Positions 5,969 through 27,879 of a stretch of 64,000 nt of DNA are shown piece by piece. The first letter of the stretch is position 1; every line of letters starts with the position of its first letter. The stretch is taken from the sequence record PP400786. The stretch is one strand, 5' to 3'. The translations under genes were made by a program, and so were the position numbers. Below the pieces are notes generated by a model, which made no database searches, was not told the origin of the DNA, and saw nothing but the letters and a program-made list of their open reading frames with translations. Source of the stretch: Escherichia phage FL12.

Positions 5969-6971
5969 AGCTCATTAACTCAATCCAAGCTGGACGAAGT
6001 ACATCTTGCACCATTTTAACTAATTCCTTTTTAATCAAAGAAGGATTATCTGCTTGAGTTAGAGTAATACCTTCACGAGAAGTTTCTTCCAAAATATCTT
6101 GAACAGTTAGCCCCATCACCTTTCCAAAATCCTTTGGACCAATTTCGCCAATTTTAGAAATAACGTTATTTACTCGGTTCAGTGTAACGTAACAAGCTAA
6201 AATCCCCACCAATTTGTTATCAGCTTCTGACAGTTCAACTTTAGCTTTAATAGGCTTATCAGACTTTTTCTTTTCACTAAATTTGGAATTCTTGCATTTA
6301 ATCGCTACACGATTGCGATTAGGCAGCCAAGAAGGATAACAAGGTTTCAATACATATCCTTCAGCAGTAAATACTTCGCCTTTTGCTTCGGCATTCCAGA
6401 CGCATTTATTTGCATCAACTAATCCAGCATGGTCTACTGTAAAATTATAATCTTGGACGACAGAATCTAAATCATTTGGCAATTTAATAAGCTCTTCAAA
6501 TTTACCGCGACCTAAAAGTGGAGCCATTTTAAATTTAAATGTATTACAGAATGATTCCATCATATAATCGTCGACATAAGTCACATCACCACTTTCTGTA
6601 GTGACAATAATGTCAAATACATAAAAATCTTTATCACCATAATCAACATTCTTCTGAATGCCAGGTCCAGCGAATTCGCCAAAGACTTGATAAGATACAA
6701 CCGCTGAGGTTTCCATAATATCTTGTACTGCTTTAATGGAATCAGCGTAATTCTTTAGAATAATTTCATACCCAAAGAAATCTTCAGCGGGAAGAATCGG
6801 TCCAGTACGTTTAGCGCAAGTTACTTTATCACGCTCAATAATCAATGAGAAATTTGTGCCGTGAATCTTTTCACGAGCTACCCATTCGCCGCCAGTCAAT
6901 CCTAAGTTATAAAGTTTTTCAATAAATTTAGAGTTGTAATGATTTTCAAGACTGCTATACTTTTTAAACAT
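5967..6971 (-). CDS. rnlB: RNA ligase 2
   Basis: 334 aa; nucleotidyltransferase motif I lysine in REKIHGTN; T4 Rnl2 length and position. Confidence 0.9.
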
Positions 6972-20488: not shown

Positions 20489-22579
20489 TTATCCTTGAAC
20501 GAACTTGTAAGGCATGTTTGCAATATCTATGCAAGACGCAATAATTCCAAGAGATGATTCTACTTTCTGTTTAACATTTGATGAAACAAATGATGCAAAG
20601 TCAACTCTGTCTTCTATATCACCTGTCATTGTAACCAATTCACCAGTTTCCATTAAATGGTCTCCGTCATAGATTACCGATTCGGTGAGTTCTTCTGTGG
20701 TCATGACTTCAGCTTGAATGAGTTTTGTATTATTAGATGTTGTTCCGTCATTATTAGAAGCATCAGTTATTTTATTAACTTTGACCATTAATCCGCGCGG
20801 TAGAATAACTTCAGCTTCTGTTGCTATTCCGAGACTTCCTGGATATACAACATTAACTTTATGTGCGCCGTCAATTGCCCATCCTATTTGAACTTTAACG
20901 TATTCAGGATTTTCTTTATACGCTCTTATTTCGTTTGGATTAATAGTTATTCCTTCTTCATTTTTATCAACTGTCAATTCATTACGAGCTTCTGGTTCTA
21001 AAAGACCAATACCAGCATGTGTAATTCCAAAACGCCCAAAAATGATAGGAGTTAAAGAAGTAGATACAAAATTTCTGAAATAGAACACTTTATTTTTAAC
21101 TAACGCTTCATATATAGGAGCAGTCATACTTTGAGCACGATAAACTGTAATGCCTTCTGGTATACGGTCACCATTTTCAAAAGCTGAATCTAAGTTATTT
21201 ATAGCAGATTCAATTTCTTTTTCACTCATTACATCATATCGTTCTGGATTGTAACGACCTAAAAGAAGATTATTGATGTCAGTATATCCTGAACCGCAAT
21301 ATTCTCTAATGCCACGCTTTTGTGATGGAGTATATTTAGAACCATCGCGGGCAATAGTAATATCAATCATTGGACCAGCACCAATTCCAGAAAAACTGTA
21401 AATCATTCGTTTGAGGAATTTAGTTTTTGCTGCGTTCCAGGAATTTTTAGTTATTTCTTCCCAGACTTCATCTGGTTGTCCTTTACGATTTTTATTATGA
21501 TTAGCAAGCCATTTATCTTTATAATCTTCAAAGAATTGATTTACAGCTGCTGCGTATTTCTCTAAACATTTTATTGAAGTAGTTGGTTCATTTTTAATTG
21601 CATTAAAAATTACTTCTTTAATTTTTTCTGAAACTTCACCGACTTGACTCATTGGAAAGAATTTATAATCATAGTGAAGTTCATCTGCCGTTCCTTCAGC
21701 AATAATTTTTGCTGCCTTTGTTTTAGAAGCTAATGAATTAATTCCAATTTTCATTTCTTCTGCTTCGGGAATTAAAGGTGCAGTAGCTGGTTTATTAAAA
21801 TTAGCTGCTGTAGATTCATACTTCTGGAATAATTCACTTTCAAATCTAGAAGATTCCAATGACTGACTTTGTGCAATTGCTCTACGGGAAATTTTAACTT
21901 TAACAATTACGGCTTGGTCAGAACGTTTATCATTTTCTTGTGCAATAGATGCTGCAATTGCCTCATTTTTAGTTACTTGAGCTCCAGTATCTTTATTGAT
22001 ATAAACATCACCGACCTTCGATTCAACTTTAGTAAAGAGCTCGGTACTAATTTCCGGAACCCCTGGAATGTCTTCTAGTGATACATTTTTGCGATGTATA
22101 AGAATATATGCATACTTTTTATCATAATCCCAGAGTTCCTTAAGAAGGACGTATCTGCCACCTGAACGACTACGGATAAGTCTATCAGCAATAACTTGAA
22201 TTTGTCGAGCTTGACCAGCAGTTTTAGACTTAAGAATACGGAGCATACAGGCATCAATTTTATACTGACGCATTGTTTGCATTGCAACAGTAAAAACTGA
22301 ATTGATATAATTAATTGGGCTTGGACCAAGACCTTTTAATTTAGCAATTGAACCTTTAGCGGTTAATGTAAAAGGAACAATATGCATCATTTTGTCGCCC
22401 ATTTTTAAATCACGATTAGTATCACCTCCAGATGTATAGGTACATAAACGAAAGCCTGGTTGTTCAATTGCATCATCAACGTGAACTGAAAAAATTTGCG
22501 GTATTTTCTTCTTTGGATGTAAGTTTGTAATTGGAAGAGTAGTATCTTCGTCAAATAATTCTGTAATAAGTTCCATCAT
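20489..22579 (-). CDS. alt: ADP-ribosyltransferase Alt (packaged, modifies host RNA polymerase)
   Basis: 696 aa, T4 Alt-like length and position between 54 and 30. Confidence 0.85.
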   Translation of the reverse strand: MMELITELFDEDTTLPITNLHPKKKIPQIFSVHVDDAIEQPGFRLCTYTSGGDTNRDLKMGDKMMHIVPFTLTAKGSIAKLKGLGPSPINYINSVFTVAMQTMRQYKIDACMLRILKSKTAGQARQIQVIADRLIRSRSGGRYVLLKELWDYDKKYAYILIHRKNVSLEDIPGVPEISTELFTKVESKVGDVYINKDTGAQVTKNEAIAASIAQENDKRSDQAVIVKVKISRRAIAQSQSLESSRFESELFQKYESTAANFNKPATAPLIPEAEEMKIGINSLASKTKAAKIIAEGTADELHYDYKFFPMSQVGEVSEKIKEVIFNAIKNEPTTSIKCLEKYAAAVNQFFEDYKDKWLANHNKNRKGQPDEVWEEITKNSWNAAKTKFLKRMIYSFSGIGAGPMIDITIARDGSKYTPSQKRGIREYCGSGYTDINNLLLGRYNPERYDVMSEKEIESAINNLDSAFENGDRIPEGITVYRAQSMTAPIYEALVKNKVFYFRNFVSTSLTPIIFGRFGITHAGIGLLEPEARNELTVDKNEEGITINPNEIRAYKENPEYVKVQIGWAIDGAHKVNVVYPGSLGIATEAEVILPRGLMVKVNKITDASNNDGTTSNNTKLIQAEVMTTEELTESVIYDGDHLMETGELVTMTGDIEDRVDFASFVSSNVKQKVESSLGIIASCIDIANMPYKFVQG

Positions 22580-22817: not shown

Positions 22818-24277
22818 AGACCAGTTACCTCATGAAAATCGCCAAATACATCTTCGAACGTATTAGCTTTAGTTTTATCTTCACGTAAACGAATCGCAAT
22901 CGGAAGAAATAATTTAACGTAATCAGTGCGGCCATCAGATTTTAACCAACCGTTGCATTCGCACTCTAGAATTTTTCCAATATAATAATTTTGGTTTTCC
23001 ATAATGCGAGTACGGTCAAGTTCATGTGATTTTACACCGGCTTTATCTTTTAAGCCTGAGCCAGCATTTACCTTAATTTTTCCACACTCTGACTCAAGAA
23101 TAAATCCACCCGCTTTAGTAGGGTCTTTACGGTGAGGATAAATTCCTACAATTTTTAAATCAACATCAATTACTTCTTTAAATTTATAGAGATTTTTTGA
23201 ACGAGCATTTTCCCATAATCCATCGATATTTTTGAGAATAATACCTTCAAGACCTTGGTCAATATACTTTTTATAAATTACCTTAGCTTCATCTAGGTTA
23301 TTTACTATCTGGTTTTCAATTAAAATTACTTTATCATAGCCTGATGTCATTTGTTCTAGTTTAGAAAAACGTACATCATATTTTAAACGAAATGCTGGAA
23401 GACCATATATTTCTACTAATGGAACATAGTCCCAGACCTGAAACTTCATGCATTGAGCTTCTTTTTCAGAAATGGTTCCCTTTAAAGATTTATTAGCGAT
23501 TCCATTAGAAGTAGTACGTGATTCAGCTACTTCGGCGAATTCTTTGGCTTTACTAATTTCAGGATGAGCATCAAAAAGAAAATCTAGGCCTTCTGGCTCC
23601 TTTTTAACTTGCTCATGGTATACCAATTCGCCATCAATTAACACGCCTTCTGGATGAATCTTGCGGGCTTCAGCGGTCATTTTAATTAACTCTTCCTTAA
23701 GAAGATCTAATCCTAGATATTCATTACCAGCTCGTGATAAAAGACGAACATCATCTAATTCATCACCTCTGACTTCAGCAAAGCACCGAGCTCCATCAGC
23801 TTTTAACTGGGCAAAAGCTGGAAATTTGATATTCTTATTAATGCCTTTTTCATCATAAGAACTTGCCAGCATTTGAGGTTGTTCAGGAATTAAACCTGGC
23901 CAAACTTTGTTCGCAATAGATACTGATGCACCGCATTCAAGGTCTCGCATCATCACCCGACGCAAAACTTCAACATCATCTTTTTTACCATCAGTGATAT
24001 ATCCAGTTAATTCCTCAATTGCTGCATTTCCAGTCAATTTCCGAGTAGCTAACGTGAATTCAATGAAGTCAAGCATATCGGTAATAGTCAACATTCCAAA
24101 ACTCTGGGTAGCAATACCCGGTTTAGGCCATTTCTTGATATAATACTGTAACCCACGAGAATAAGTCAGACGATATACTCGTTTAAGCAATTCATTATCT
24201 TTATTCTTTTCAAGAATTGCTTGCTTCTGCTTAGTTGATCCAATAGATGCTATTTCATTCAGAATTTTAAGAATCAT
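22814..24277 (-). CDS. 30: ATP-dependent DNA ligase gp30
   Basis: 487 aa; adenylation motif KADGAR (KxDG); T4 DNA ligase length. Confidence 0.95.
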   Translation of the reverse strand: MILKILNEIASIGSTKQKQAILEKNKDNELLKRVYRLTYSRGLQYYIKKWPKPGIATQSFGMLTITDMLDFIEFTLATRKLTGNAAIEELTGYITDGKKDDVEVLRRVMMRDLECGASVSIANKVWPGLIPEQPQMLASSYDEKGINKNIKFPAFAQLKADGARCFAEVRGDELDDVRLLSRAGNEYLGLDLLKEELIKMTAEARKIHPEGVLIDGELVYHEQVKKEPEGLDFLFDAHPEISKAKEFAEVAESRTTSNGIANKSLKGTISEKEAQCMKFQVWDYVPLVEIYGLPAFRLKYDVRFSKLEQMTSGYDKVILIENQIVNNLDEAKVIYKKYIDQGLEGIILKNIDGLWENARSKNLYKFKEVIDVDLKIVGIYPHRKDPTKAGGFILESECGKIKVNAGSGLKDKAGVKSHELDRTRIMENQNYYIGKILECECNGWLKSDGRTDYVKLFLPIAIRLREDKTKANTFEDVFGDFHEVTGL

Positions 24278-24543
24278 TGTTCATCCTTTAGAGTTTGGTT
24301 TACAGCTCTATTATAAATCAATTCATCATTAAGCTCAGTCAAAGACCTGTGGTACGTGGTTCTAACTTTATTTCCTTGCATCCAGTGCTTGATATAAATG
24401 AAACCTTGCTCTACACATTTTTTAAAAATTCGTTCGTCTTTTTGAGCTCGGAATTCTGGATTGCATCTAAAAAATTGATTTACGTGACCGTAATCACGTG
24501 TAGTATTACCTTCATTTTCATAAATAGTGTGAACAACAAACAT
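24274..24543 (-). CDS. hypothetical protein (position of T4 30.1)
   Basis: 89-aa ORF, stop/start overlap with gene 30. Confidence 0.6.
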   Translation of the reverse strand: MFVVHTIYENEGNTTRDYGHVNQFFRCNPEFRAQKDERIFKKCVEQGFIYIKHWMQGNKVRTTYHRSLTELNDELIYNRAVNQTLKDEQ

Positions 24544-24554
24544 TAGAATGCTCC

Positions 24555-25406
24555 TTAGAAAATATTATCACCACTAGTAAGTCTATTAAAATACCCTGCG
24601 TCGCCAGGCTTAATATAACTCCACGTGTGGAATGGATTCATATGATACGGGTGTGTATAATATGGATTATATGGATGTGTATAATATGGATGATATGGAT
24701 TTAATCCAGGCGTTCTCCAGGTAGTGTTCCAAGGAAAAGAATCGTTTTTAACCATCTTCTCAATTACATCTTTTATAACTTTTTCACTATCAAAACTTTC
24801 TTTATTTTCCTTTGGTGAAAAAAGCTTATTTTCTACATCATTCCATGTATAAACTCGCTGCGCAGTTTTTGGAATATTGTCACGCTCTCCTCGAGCCATC
24901 CAATAAACCGGAACATTTAATATTTCACTCGCATGATCGCAATGGTGAGCGAGATCGTCAATATAACAAATTACGTTATATTTCTCTTTTGCCTTTTTGA
25001 ACAACTCTTCTTTTGAAGAATCATGACTACACATCAGTACTTCTGAGAAGGCACCAGGAAAAAGAGCATTCAAATTAAATTGACGATTCAGCAGAGCGTC
25101 AATAGAATCACCCAGCGCTGTAACAGCTACAAAATTATAATCTTCTTTTAATTTGTTAATTACACACAGAGCATCTTTATATGGAGACAAGTAACGAATA
25201 AAATCCGAACGATTGTATTTTTCAATTAACTTGACGCCAAGTTCTTCATCACAATTAAAAAGTTTACCTGGAGAGATAAATTTCTCATCTTGGATCATTT
25301 TTAAAATATGTTCCAATGGAAGATTATATTTCTGAGCAAAATAAGGAAGGCCTGATTGCCAGCTTAAACATACTCCATCAATATCAGTTAAAATAGTAGG
25401 CTTCAT
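24555..25406 (-). CDS. HAD-family phosphatase-like protein with Pro/Tyr/His-rich C-terminal repeat (position of T4 30.2)
   Basis: 283 aa; N-terminal LTDIDGV (DxDG HAD motif I); C-terminal PYHPYYTHPYNPYYTHPYHMNP. Confidence 0.7.
   Translation of the reverse strand: MKPTILTDIDGVCLSWQSGLPYFAQKYNLPLEHILKMIQDEKFISPGKLFNCDEELGVKLIEKYNRSDFIRYLSPYKDALCVINKLKEDYNFVAVTALGDSIDALLNRQFNLNALFPGAFSEVLMCSHDSSKEELFKKAKEKYNVICYIDDLAHHCDHASEILNVPVYWMARGERDNIPKTAQRVYTWNDVENKLFSPKENKESFDSEKVIKDVIEKMVKNDSFPWNTTWRTPGLNPYHPYYTHPYNPYYTHPYHMNPFHTWSYIKPGDAGYFNRLTSGDNIF
24640..24700 (-). repeat. short tandem DNA repeat (GTGTATAATATGGAT-like units) in the 3' part of the HAD-like gene
   Basis: Imperfect direct repeats in the plus-strand sequence. 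Confidence 0.6.
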
Positions 25407-25867
25407 AGAGAGTCTCTTAATAGGTTTAACACATCAATAAATTCAGCTTCGGTTAGTATTGTATCATCTTTTGTTAGACCACTAGCCATGCTGTGCTTCA
25501 AAACTTTTCCTTTCGAGGCTTGTAATGCATCGCGAAAGCCCTTGTTTTGGATCGCTGCTTCAAAATATGCATTTGTGTATAATTCTTTCCACGCCGGGGA
25601 GTATCTTGAAAACGGAACTCCAAGCCAGAAGAGGGTCCCACGGTCCTGAGCTCTAGCATAAGACCTTCCAGCTTGTTGAGCGGCAAGCCCGGATAACCCA
25701 AATATACGGCGTTGTTGTTCAACATTTTTCACCTTGCATCCTTGGAGGAATCCTTCGAGACCTCCAAATTGAATGCCATCCATAACGAAAGGCCATTGGG
25801 CGAAATTACTTAATGCACATGATGGCCATTTAAAATTGCTTCTTATCTCTAGCTCAGACATTTTCAA
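25403..25867 (-). CDS. NADAR/YbiA (DUF1768)-like protein (position of T4 30.3)
   Basis: 154 aa; CALSNFAQWPFVMDG...EGFLQGCK resembles the YbiA/NADAR SNFxxWP...DG...E(H)Y(F)Q..K motif. Confidence 0.6.
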   Translation of the reverse strand: MKMSELEIRSNFKWPSCALSNFAQWPFVMDGIQFGGLEGFLQGCKVKNVEQQRRIFGLSGLAAQQAGRSYARAQDRGTLFWLGVPFSRYSPAWKELYTNAYFEAAIQNKGFRDALQASKGKVLKHSMASGLTKDDTILTEAEFIDVLNLLRDSL

Positions 25868-26060
25868 TACTTATAATTTCAACATCAGCCCAATGACCAT
25901 AGCAAGGAAGACGAAATTCAACTGGCCAGTTAGGGTCCTTTTCTAATATAATAGACTCAACTTGTGGTTCTTCATGTTCATCAGTATATGGATTTTTATC
26001 TGTTACTTTATATGTGACCTTAATGTACTGAATTCCAAAAATCTTATTAATTATATTCAT
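25854..26060 (-). CDS. hypothetical small protein
   Basis: 68-aa ORF in tight operon spacing. Confidence 0.55.
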   Translation of the reverse strand: MNIINKIFGIQYIKVTYKVTDKNPYTDEHEEPQVESIILEKDPNWPVEFRLPCYGHWADVEIISIENV

Positions 26061-26254
26061 ACTAATTCCTTTAATCCGTAAATAGGAGATAATTCATCAC
26101 CCATACGAAGGTCTTCATTTCCATCTACCCAGGAAACAATATAAGCCTCTTTTATTTGAATACCACTCCATTTAAATGGAGGTAGAACCTTAGAAATTAA
26201 TCCAGGTATACCAACTCCCTTTAATTCAACAGTTTGACCTAAAAAGAATTTCAT
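26057..26254 (-). CDS. hypothetical small protein
   Basis: 65-aa ORF, stop/start overlaps with neighbours. Confidence 0.55.
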   Translation of the reverse strand: MKFFLGQTVELKGVGIPGLISKVLPPFKWSGIQIKEAYIVSWVDGNEDLRMGDELSPIYGLKELV

Positions 26255-26541
26255 TAGAACCTCATCTGAAAACCGTGTGATTTAACATTACCGCCGCCAA
26301 TGTCAGAAATGTTAATTTCACGCGCAATTGAAGGGTCAATGTCAATTTCACGATTGAGTTTAGTGATAGCTAGAGTATCACGCCCATTTACAGTACGGAA
26401 CTCTAAAGGGCAGACTACATTAACGTAGTTTTTAATTGATTCACTGGTAGGTTGCAAATGAGCAGGAAGGTCTTTAGGCGCCTTAGAGAAAACTACTTCA
26501 CAGAAGTTTTTGCGGGTATCAAAATAAGTAGTCATAAACAT
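26254..26541 (-). CDS. hypothetical protein
   Basis: 95-aa ORF preceded by GC hairpin and Shine-Dalgarno. Confidence 0.6.
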   Translation of the reverse strand: MFMTTYFDTRKNFCEVVFSKAPKDLPAHLQPTSESIKNYVNVVCPLEFRTVNGRDTLAITKLNREIDIDPSIAREINISDIGGGNVKSHGFQMRF

Positions 26542-26582
26542 AGTATTTTCCTCAGTAAGGGGCCGAAGCCCCTCATTTTATT

Positions 26583-26960
26583 TTAAATATCAAATTCGTT
26601 AAGAACTACATCAAAGATCGCTTCAAGATGCTCAGGTTTAGCTCTGTTACTCAGAATATGACGAATCCAAGTTTTAACCAGAAGCTTGCGATTAACACCA
26701 TTCCAACAAGGATGAGTCCCTAAATCACGTTGACGAAAATCATCATCTAATGCGATTTTAAAAGAAGAGCCTTCTTTTGTGATTGAAACCGTGATGCCAT
26801 TTTCAAATCGCATATAAACGTAGTTAGGAGTCATATACTGTTCAATTTCGCATACTGATCCATTTTGATGTTTCCAAAGGCAAATAGTATCAATAGAACC
26901 TGCAATACCGTTAGAAACATATTTACGTTCAAAGTTGATGTAGTTCATTTTATTCTCCAA
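26583..26960 (-). CDS. hypothetical protein
   Basis: 125-aa ORF. Confidence 0.6.
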   Translation of the reverse strand: MENKMNYINFERKYVSNGIAGSIDTICLWKHQNGSVCEIEQYMTPNYVYMRFENGITVSITKEGSSFKIALDDDFRQRDLGTHPCWNGVNRKLLVKTWIRHILSNRAKPEHLEAIFDVVLNEFDI

Positions 26961-27015
26961 GATGTTTAATTGTGGTACAGGTATATAATATCATATCCTG
27001 TACCAAAGTAAACAA

Positions 27016-27348
27016 TTATTTTACTACTTTCCAATGTTGCATGTCAAGTTTACCAACTTTTTTCATCTTCTCAATTAAACGTTCGGCACGTTGGCGAGCT
27101 GTAACATAATACCATTCACCTAATTCATTTTGTTCAATTTTTCCAACGATTACTGTATTCAATTCATAAATCCAACCAGTAAAGAAATTATGAACTTGAA
27201 TTGTAAAGGTGAAATCTGTTCCCATACCTTCTGTCGTTTCTACTTCAATAATATCACCTTCAACTGCCATTAAGAACCACATAGTTTCATTATATTTACC
27301 ATTGAAGCATTTAGTTTTAACTGCAGCGTTCAGATTAATCGTTTTCAT
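27016..27348 (-). CDS. hypothetical protein
   Basis: 110-aa ORF. Confidence 0.6.
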   Translation of the reverse strand: MKTINLNAAVKTKCFNGKYNETMWFLMAVEGDIIEVETTEGMGTDFTFTIQVHNFFTGWIYELNTVIVGKIEQNELGEWYYVTARQRAERLIEKMKKVGKLDMQHWKVVK

Positions 27349-27426
27349 TTTATTCTCCTTTGTTTGTGTAAGATAATACTATCACAAAGGAACCATGCTG
27401 TAAACAACTTTATGCAATCTTTGGAA

Positions 27427-27453
27427 AATAAAAAAGGACTCCCGAAGGAGTCC
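27427..27453 (-). terminator. terminator after the small basic protein gene
   Basis: GGACTCCTTCGGGAGTCC hairpin followed by T-tract on minus strand. Confidence 0.65.
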
Positions 27454-27458
27454 TCAAC

Positions 27459-27636
27459 TTATGCTTTCTGCTTACCAAAACGAGAAGCATCATCTCGAAG
27501 AACCGCACGTGCTCGGCGCATGATCTTCTCAACAGTTTGATTGATACGAGAGTTCGACCCACGCTTGTAACCAGCGCGTTTAGAATCACCAACTTTCTTT
27601 TCAACTGCTTTCTTTGCTTTAGCTTGTTTTGCCATT
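27459..27636 (-). CDS. small highly basic protein, ~58 aa (track ORF extends to 27677; start assigned to MAKQAK with AAAGAG Shine-Dalgarno)
   Basis: MAKQAKAKKAVEKKVGDSKRAGYKRG..., Lys/Arg-rich, preceded by ~240 nt of non-coding leader. Confidence 0.55.
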
Positions 27637-27879
27637 ATAAATTCTCTTTTAAATGAAAATGCAGGACTTATTGGCATTGCCTGCGCAAGCCCTCAAGGGG
27701 AACATAGGTTTTTGGATATTTAACGACCAGGATAACCATAAACCCGTCATCATTCACATTCAAGAGGTACACCGTAAAACTGTCGGGGTCTTAAAACTAT
27801 AATGATTCGCAAATCATTAATCAGACAGTTCGACGGCTCCTCGATTTAGCTCACACTAAGGCAGTGAATCTCCAATAAA

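Follow-up and report, generated by a model that had tools for sequence, protein, structure and literature searches.

We analyzed a 64,000-nt stretch of DNA from Escherichia phage FL12 (record PP400786; hereafter the window) and found that the gene at 25403..25861 on its minus strand is very probably adfN, which encodes a minimal, stand-alone NADAR-fold enzyme of 152 aa directed against DarTG1. Judged by its sequence, the window comes from a T4-like (Tequatrovirus) phage genome and the gene is the ortholog of T4 gene 30.3. We established this orthology, the intactness and full length of the allele, the conservation of its catalytic residues and the NADAR fold of its product. The guanine-ADP-ribose (G-ADPr) glycohydrolase activity and the protection against DarTG1 are inferred for the window allele from the T4 protein, which differs from it at 2 of 152 residues, and the window phage is likewise predicted to be DarTG1-resistant. 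The function of adfN is already known, having been established experimentally between 2023 and 2025, and our analysis adds no new biology to it. Finding an intact, characterized anti-defence gene in this phage is nevertheless useful for annotation and for predicting host range.

The window protein is identical to T4 gp30.3 (NP_049816) at 150 of 152 aa (99%), with the substitutions K11R and M125I, and is 100% identical to the 30.3 product of phage AR1. As the two substitutions are conservative, they would not be expected to make the protein differ functionally from T4 AdfN. Its match to PF08010 (Phage_30_3) covers profile positions 1-138 of 138 and, at 234.6 bits (E 3.6e-70), exceeds the cut-off of 36; PHROG 652 is also matched (E 1e-51). 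Using tblastn, we located adfN homologs in 1510 phage records, near full length in 1503 of them, and most database records label these homologs 'hypothetical protein'. Compared to T4, the gene has 14 nucleotide differences that alter 13 codons, 11 of them synonymously and 2 non-synonymously; compared to RB69, 38 codons differ, 33 synonymously and 5 non-synonymously. This pattern, together with the conservation of the protein, rules out that the ORF at 25403..25861 arose by chance.

The surrounding genes agree with this assignment. As in T4, adfN is placed between 30.2 and 30.4 and upstream of gene 30, which encodes the ligase. The window is collinear with T4 genes 30, 30.1, 30.2, 30.3, 30.4 and onward to 30.9, rIII and 31, and the block from 24200 to 27700 is 97% identical to many T-even phages of E. 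coli and Yersinia. A preliminary description of this DNA had called the neighbourhood hypervariable, which holds only in part. Within Tequatrovirus the block 30.1-30.9 is stable, being collinear with T4 and encoding proteins that are 97-100% identical, save for the tail of gp30.2. Across the wider T4 superfamily, however, the small genes from rIII to 30.3 do vary, while 30.3, 30.2 and 30 tend to stay linked. Other small genes flank the 30.3 homologs of Acinetobacter, Klebsiella, Vibrio and Rhizobium phages; 30.3, 30.2 and 30 remain linked in the Acinetobacter and Klebsiella phages; and the RB69 record has no annotated 30.5.

Several further features of these loci were recorded. The window encodes an Alt-type ADP-ribosyltransferase of 696 aa at 20489-22579 on the minus strand (PF03496, E 1e-37). 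Its gene is found some 3 kb downstream of adfN, as in T4, so that one strand encodes at close range both a phage enzyme that transfers ADP-ribose and one that removes it. In the Acinetobacter phage Konradin, gene 30.3 has an ADP-ribose pyrophosphatase gene, nudE, some 2.5 kb upstream. A PF08010 member with 38% identity is encoded at 6001-6468 of locus L007, on a metagenomic contig of about 308 kb (the longest contig of the cluster is 424 kb) that holds many small unannotated ORFs and resembles a jumbo phage; within 3-5 kb of this member are a NUDIX gene and a Thg1-like gene. Two GC-rich hairpins of the window resemble terminators: one at 27434-27455 on the minus strand, immediately downstream of the 30.9-like ORF, the other at 26558-26573, between 30.7 and 30.6. 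Such sites are no more numerous than in shuffled sequence. Overall, our scan of the window for terminators and promoters returned site counts near those of shuffled sequence, and we base no claim on it.

The gene had initially been described as an ORF of 154 aa at 25403-25867. This ORF is real: in the ORF list, the minus-strand frame has its stop at 25403 and stays open to a TTG at 25867, and both of the peptide strings quoted for it, CALSNFAQWPFVMDG and EGFLQGCK, are found in its translation. Its start, however, had been placed two codons too early. The true start is most likely the ATG at 25861, because T4 annotates the same 459-nt CDS, because this ATG is part of ATGTCTGA, in which the gene overlaps the 30.4 stop, and because the published E36/K43 numbering falls on a Glu and a Lys only when counted from the ATG. 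The resulting CDS (25403..25861, 152 aa, ATG start and TGA stop) agrees with the ORF list, T4 orthology and PF08010, and the two extra in-frame codons, TTG AAA at 25862..25867, are probably not translated as part of AdfN. The gene overlaps both of its neighbours on the minus strand. At its upstream end, the eight-nucleotide overlap (25854..25861) holds the adfN ATG inside the end of the 30.4 ORF (25854..26060), whose TGA stop lies at 25854-25856. At its downstream end, the adfN TGA and the ATG with which gene 30.2 (24555..25406) begins share nucleotides within the sequence ATGA (25403..25406). The T4 annotation also contains an internal, out-of-frame ORF, 30.3', which corresponds to 25498-25725 on the minus strand and is open for 76 codons in both the window and T4. 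The longest open stretch of this frame in RB69 is only 40 codons, which argues against a conserved coding sequence.

We next consider the protein's family. The preliminary description had proposed a YbiA/NADAR-like protein, and profile and structure comparisons agree with it. We aligned 38 members of the gp30.3 family with identities of 35-99%. Invariant in this alignment are P13, A16-L-S-N-F20, F25, E36-G-F38, Q40, K43, H123, T134 and L136-T137, among others. The alignment's profile matches E. coli YbiA (2b3w; E 0.0018), which is its sole sequence match in the PDB, and it aligns the family's E..Q..K motif with YbiA SEHYFQAQK. The two families are bridged by six of the 38 members, each of which has a match of its own to PF08719 NADAR (best E 1.5e-7). 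In structure comparisons, too, YbiA (2b3w) is among the two best matches of the AdfN model. The window protein contains the NADAR motif E-x-[FY]-x-Q-x-x-K as E36-G-F-L-Q40-G-C-K43, and its key residues can be placed on the minus strand of the window. The catalytic Glu36 (codon GAA, 25754..25756) is invariant in the 38 sequences and aligned with the Glu of YbiA SEHYFQAQKF; Lys43 (AAG, 25733..25735), a catalytic or ADP-ribose-contacting residue, is likewise invariant and supported by the YbiA alignment. His123 (CAC, 25493..25495) is invariant as well and, in the AF2 model, belongs to the last beta-strand (residues 120-123). The residue at this position of the last strand separates the NADAR branches, being His in phages, Glu in YbiA and Asp in DarG1 (PMC11543638, PMC11125620), and it marks the window protein as a member of the phage branch. 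The C-terminal alpha-helix of the AF2 model, residues 138-151 (25409..25450), is intact in the window.

Searches with the single sequence gave a different result. A Pfam scan of the window protein at E<=10 returned only PF08010 and no match to PF08719 (DUF1768), so that the profile check proposed for the DUF1768 assignment is negative, yet NADAR membership holds. The phage branch has a Pfam family of its own, PF08010, and the missing match consequently reflects the partitioning of the database and does not refute membership. By these profile comparisons, the window protein is a member of PF08010, the sister family of PF08719, and not of PF08719 itself. A true NADAR would thus escape a simple search of Pfam for DUF1768, and the NADAR link emerges only when profiles, bridging members and structures are compared. 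The window protein also had no match in NCBIfam and no DarG-type match in PADLOC, and a phmmer search of the PDB with its single sequence returned only a spurious weak match (3rjz, E 0.6). The PADLOC profile PDC-M42C, an uncharacterized candidate defence system component, was weakly matched by 25 of the 37 family members in set A2 (best E 3.4e-5), and the window protein itself did not match it.

The T4 protein has been studied directly. T4 gp30.3 is already named AdfN (anti-DarT factor NADAR), a guanine-specific DNA ADP-ribosylglycohydrolase that is necessary and sufficient to render T-even phages resistant to DarTG1 (PMC11825919). Johannesman et al. (2025), who gave 30.3 its new name adfN, traced the ability of T2 and T4 to resist DarTG1 to the 3' part of this gene; T4 and T2 become DarTG1-sensitive when it is deleted, and RB69 is rescued when it is expressed (PMC11825919). 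In the same work, E36A, K43A and C-terminal truncation each impaired the function of T4 AdfN, the purified protein stripped ADP-ribose from DarT1-modified DNA in vitro, and it neither bound DarT1 nor had an effect against DarTG2 (PMC11825919). A 2024 study found in vitro that T4 gp30.3 removes guanosine-ADPr and not thymidine-ADPr (PMC11125620), and according to work from 2026, the T4 NADAR comprises just the NADAR core and leaves cytidine-ADPr in place (PMC12945103). In a 2025 transposon screen of T4, 30.3/adfN was conditionally essential on DarTG1 hosts only, where insertions in it were lost, and it was dispensable on hosts without DarTG1 (bioRxiv 10.1101/2025.11.20.689424). At 99% identity to this published protein, the window gene bears out the earlier proposal of a phage counter-defence that removes ADP-ribose from DarT-modified guanine, whereas the nucleotide salvage offered there as an alternative finds no support.

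Based on these studies, the window gene would act as follows. The gene is transcribed together with the other genes of the counter-clockwise early region that lie from rIII to gene 30. When the phage infects a DarTG1-bearing host, the DarT1 toxin would ADP-ribosylate guanines of the phage DNA and block its replication. AdfN would then hydrolyse the N-glycosidic bond that joins ADP-ribose to guanine, freeing ADP-ribose and restoring the unmodified base, so that replication could proceed. It would do so enzymatically, as the host's DarG1 antitoxin does, without binding the toxin, and its specificity for guanine adducts would leave the thymine adducts of DarT2 unaffected.

The activity of AdfN depends on its setting. 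AdfN(T4) is fully effective only during T-even infection (PMC11825919), it rescues T5 and Bas25 weakly (PMC11125620, PMC11825919), and it fails to rescue E. coli from DarT1 that is expressed without infection (PMC11125620). Because AdfN performs poorly outside T-even infection, its hydrolase activity alone does not fully explain its function in vivo, and these observations indicate that a T-even factor or context is needed for full function. The translationally coupled gene 30.2 could encode such a factor, forming with 30.3 a two-gene anti-DarT1 module. We regard this proposal as unlikely; the grounds for it, all of them synteny, are the ATGA overlap, the adjacency of the two genes out to Acinetobacter phages and their similar distribution (30.2 in 1439 phage records and 30.3 in 1510). 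Gene 30.2 adjoins 30.3 in Konradin and lies nearby in the Klebsiella phage Roth22. We did not detect it beside the 30.3 homologs of a Vibrio schizo-T4 phage or a Rhizobium phage, which rules out a universal pairing, and the two genes may both simply belong to the conserved backbone of the T4 superfamily. Its product, gp30.2, starts with MKPTILTDIDGV, which resembles motif I of HAD phosphatases (an N-terminal DIDGV), and it has no Pfam match at E<=0.1 and no sequence match in the PDB. Nearly all of its divergence from T4 is located in a C-terminal tail rich in Pro, Tyr and His, with four differing residues upstream of residue 235. The tail has an extra 10-aa repeat (YTHPYNPYYT) in the window compared to T4 and is absent from many phage homologs. 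The main text of the T4 transposon-screen preprint does not mention gene 30.2 (bioRxiv 10.1101/2025.11.20.689424).

The same dependence on T-even infection could also be accommodated if AdfN mainly degraded low-molecular-weight immune signals or by-products derived from ADP-ribose, with DNA de-ADP-ribosylation as a side activity. This proposal for phage NADARs came from comparative genomics and predates the DarT1 work (PMC9503650), and some family members, in Konradin and on the jumbo-phage-like contig, do lie near NUDIX genes. We consider it very improbable, as DarTG1 sensitivity is the sole phenotype in both targeted and genome-wide T4 screens, the substrate in vitro is guanine-ADPr in DNA and RNA (PMC11125620, PMC12945103), and no signal-degrading activity has been reported for AdfN in the literature.

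The similarity to YbiA raises the alternative that AdfN is a YbiA-type metabolite N-glycosidase, or an enzyme that salvages nucleotides or riboflavin intermediates, and acts on small molecules and not on DNA. YbiA 2b3w is among the two best structural matches and is the only PDB sequence match of the family profile, and salvage had been raised in the preliminary description. The branch-defining residue of the last strand, however, is Glu in YbiA and an invariant His in the AdfN family, DNA has been demonstrated as a substrate of the T4 ortholog, whose phenotype is specific to DarTG1, and the gene is dispensable on DarTG1-free hosts. An activity on small metabolites is accordingly given hardly any weight.

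Alt and Mod enzymes modify protein arginine, and the T4 record annotates RNA polymerase as the target of Alt. That AdfN reverses or edits the modifications made by the phage's own Alt, ModA and ModB is so improbable that it can be set aside: the Alt-type gene does lie downstream on the same strand and such transferases share early expression with T4-like NADARs (PMC9503650), but this proximity reflects the conserved synteny of T4, in which gene 30 separates the two, and no operon pairing, and the NADARs tested so far act on N-glycosidic adducts of bases (PMC11125620, PMC12945103).

The reading of the window gene as an anti-DarTG1 adfN can be compared with related systems. Its closest counterpart is T4 gene 30.3, with which it shares an identical length, the overlaps with 30.4 and 30.2, the gene order, the residues E36, K43 and H123, and the C-terminal helix. 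The RB69 protein is 96% identical to the window protein over residues 1-137 and is encoded at the same locus. Unlike the full-length window gene, however, it is cut short after T137, where the insertion of a single T gives rise to a stop (ACT TGA), and lacks the last helix; RB69 is DarTG1-sensitive because of this truncation (PMC11825919). We confirmed the extra T in the RB69 record, and the window has the T4-type sequence without the insertion. Since helix 138-151 is complete and the sequence is of the T4 type, the window allele is predicted to be functional.

Database proteins from T-even phages and metagenomes show that adfN has repeatedly been lost in nature, through deletions or frameshifts. 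One such protein (P0014) fuses the N-terminus of gp30.7 to AdfN residues ~75-152 at a shared RD(L/R)GT junction, another (P0052) fuses the N-terminus of gp30.8 to residues ~103-152, and a third (P0016) is a frameshift in which the 30.3' frame runs into the AdfN frame. P0007 and P0017 are N-terminally truncated relatives of AdfN. All five proteins are without E36 and K43.

Among its more distant relatives, YbiA (2b3w; PF08719) is ~20% identical to the window protein and has a Glu where AdfN has His123. YbiA is chromosomal, LexA-regulated and linked to the cleavage of riboflavin intermediates (PMC11125620, PMC11543638). DarG1, the NADAR antitoxin of DarTG1, is represented by the Geobacter/Trichlorobacter lovleyi protein (8bat) and the E. 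coli C7 NADAR, among others. DarG1 belongs to the BC4488 branch, which has an Asp in the last strand in place of His123, and is 219 aa long, whereas AdfN has 152 aa and only the core domain, without the helix and sheets at the N-terminus from which DarG1 builds an electropositive channel (PMC12945103). AdfN cannot substitute for DarG1 in uninfected cells (PMC11125620). Unlike DarG1, AdfN is an orphan: it is flanked by 30.2 and 30.4, and domain searches of its neighbours found nothing like DarT. AdfA (the T4 gp61.2 family) and AdfM (the T4 Tk.4 macrodomain) are also phage counter-defences against DarTG, without being homologs of AdfN. AdfA reportedly associates with DarT1, the toxin, instead of acting as an enzyme (PMC11825919), and AdfM is a macrodomain protein directed at the thymine-ADPr of DarT2 (bioRxiv 10.1101/2025.11.20.689424).
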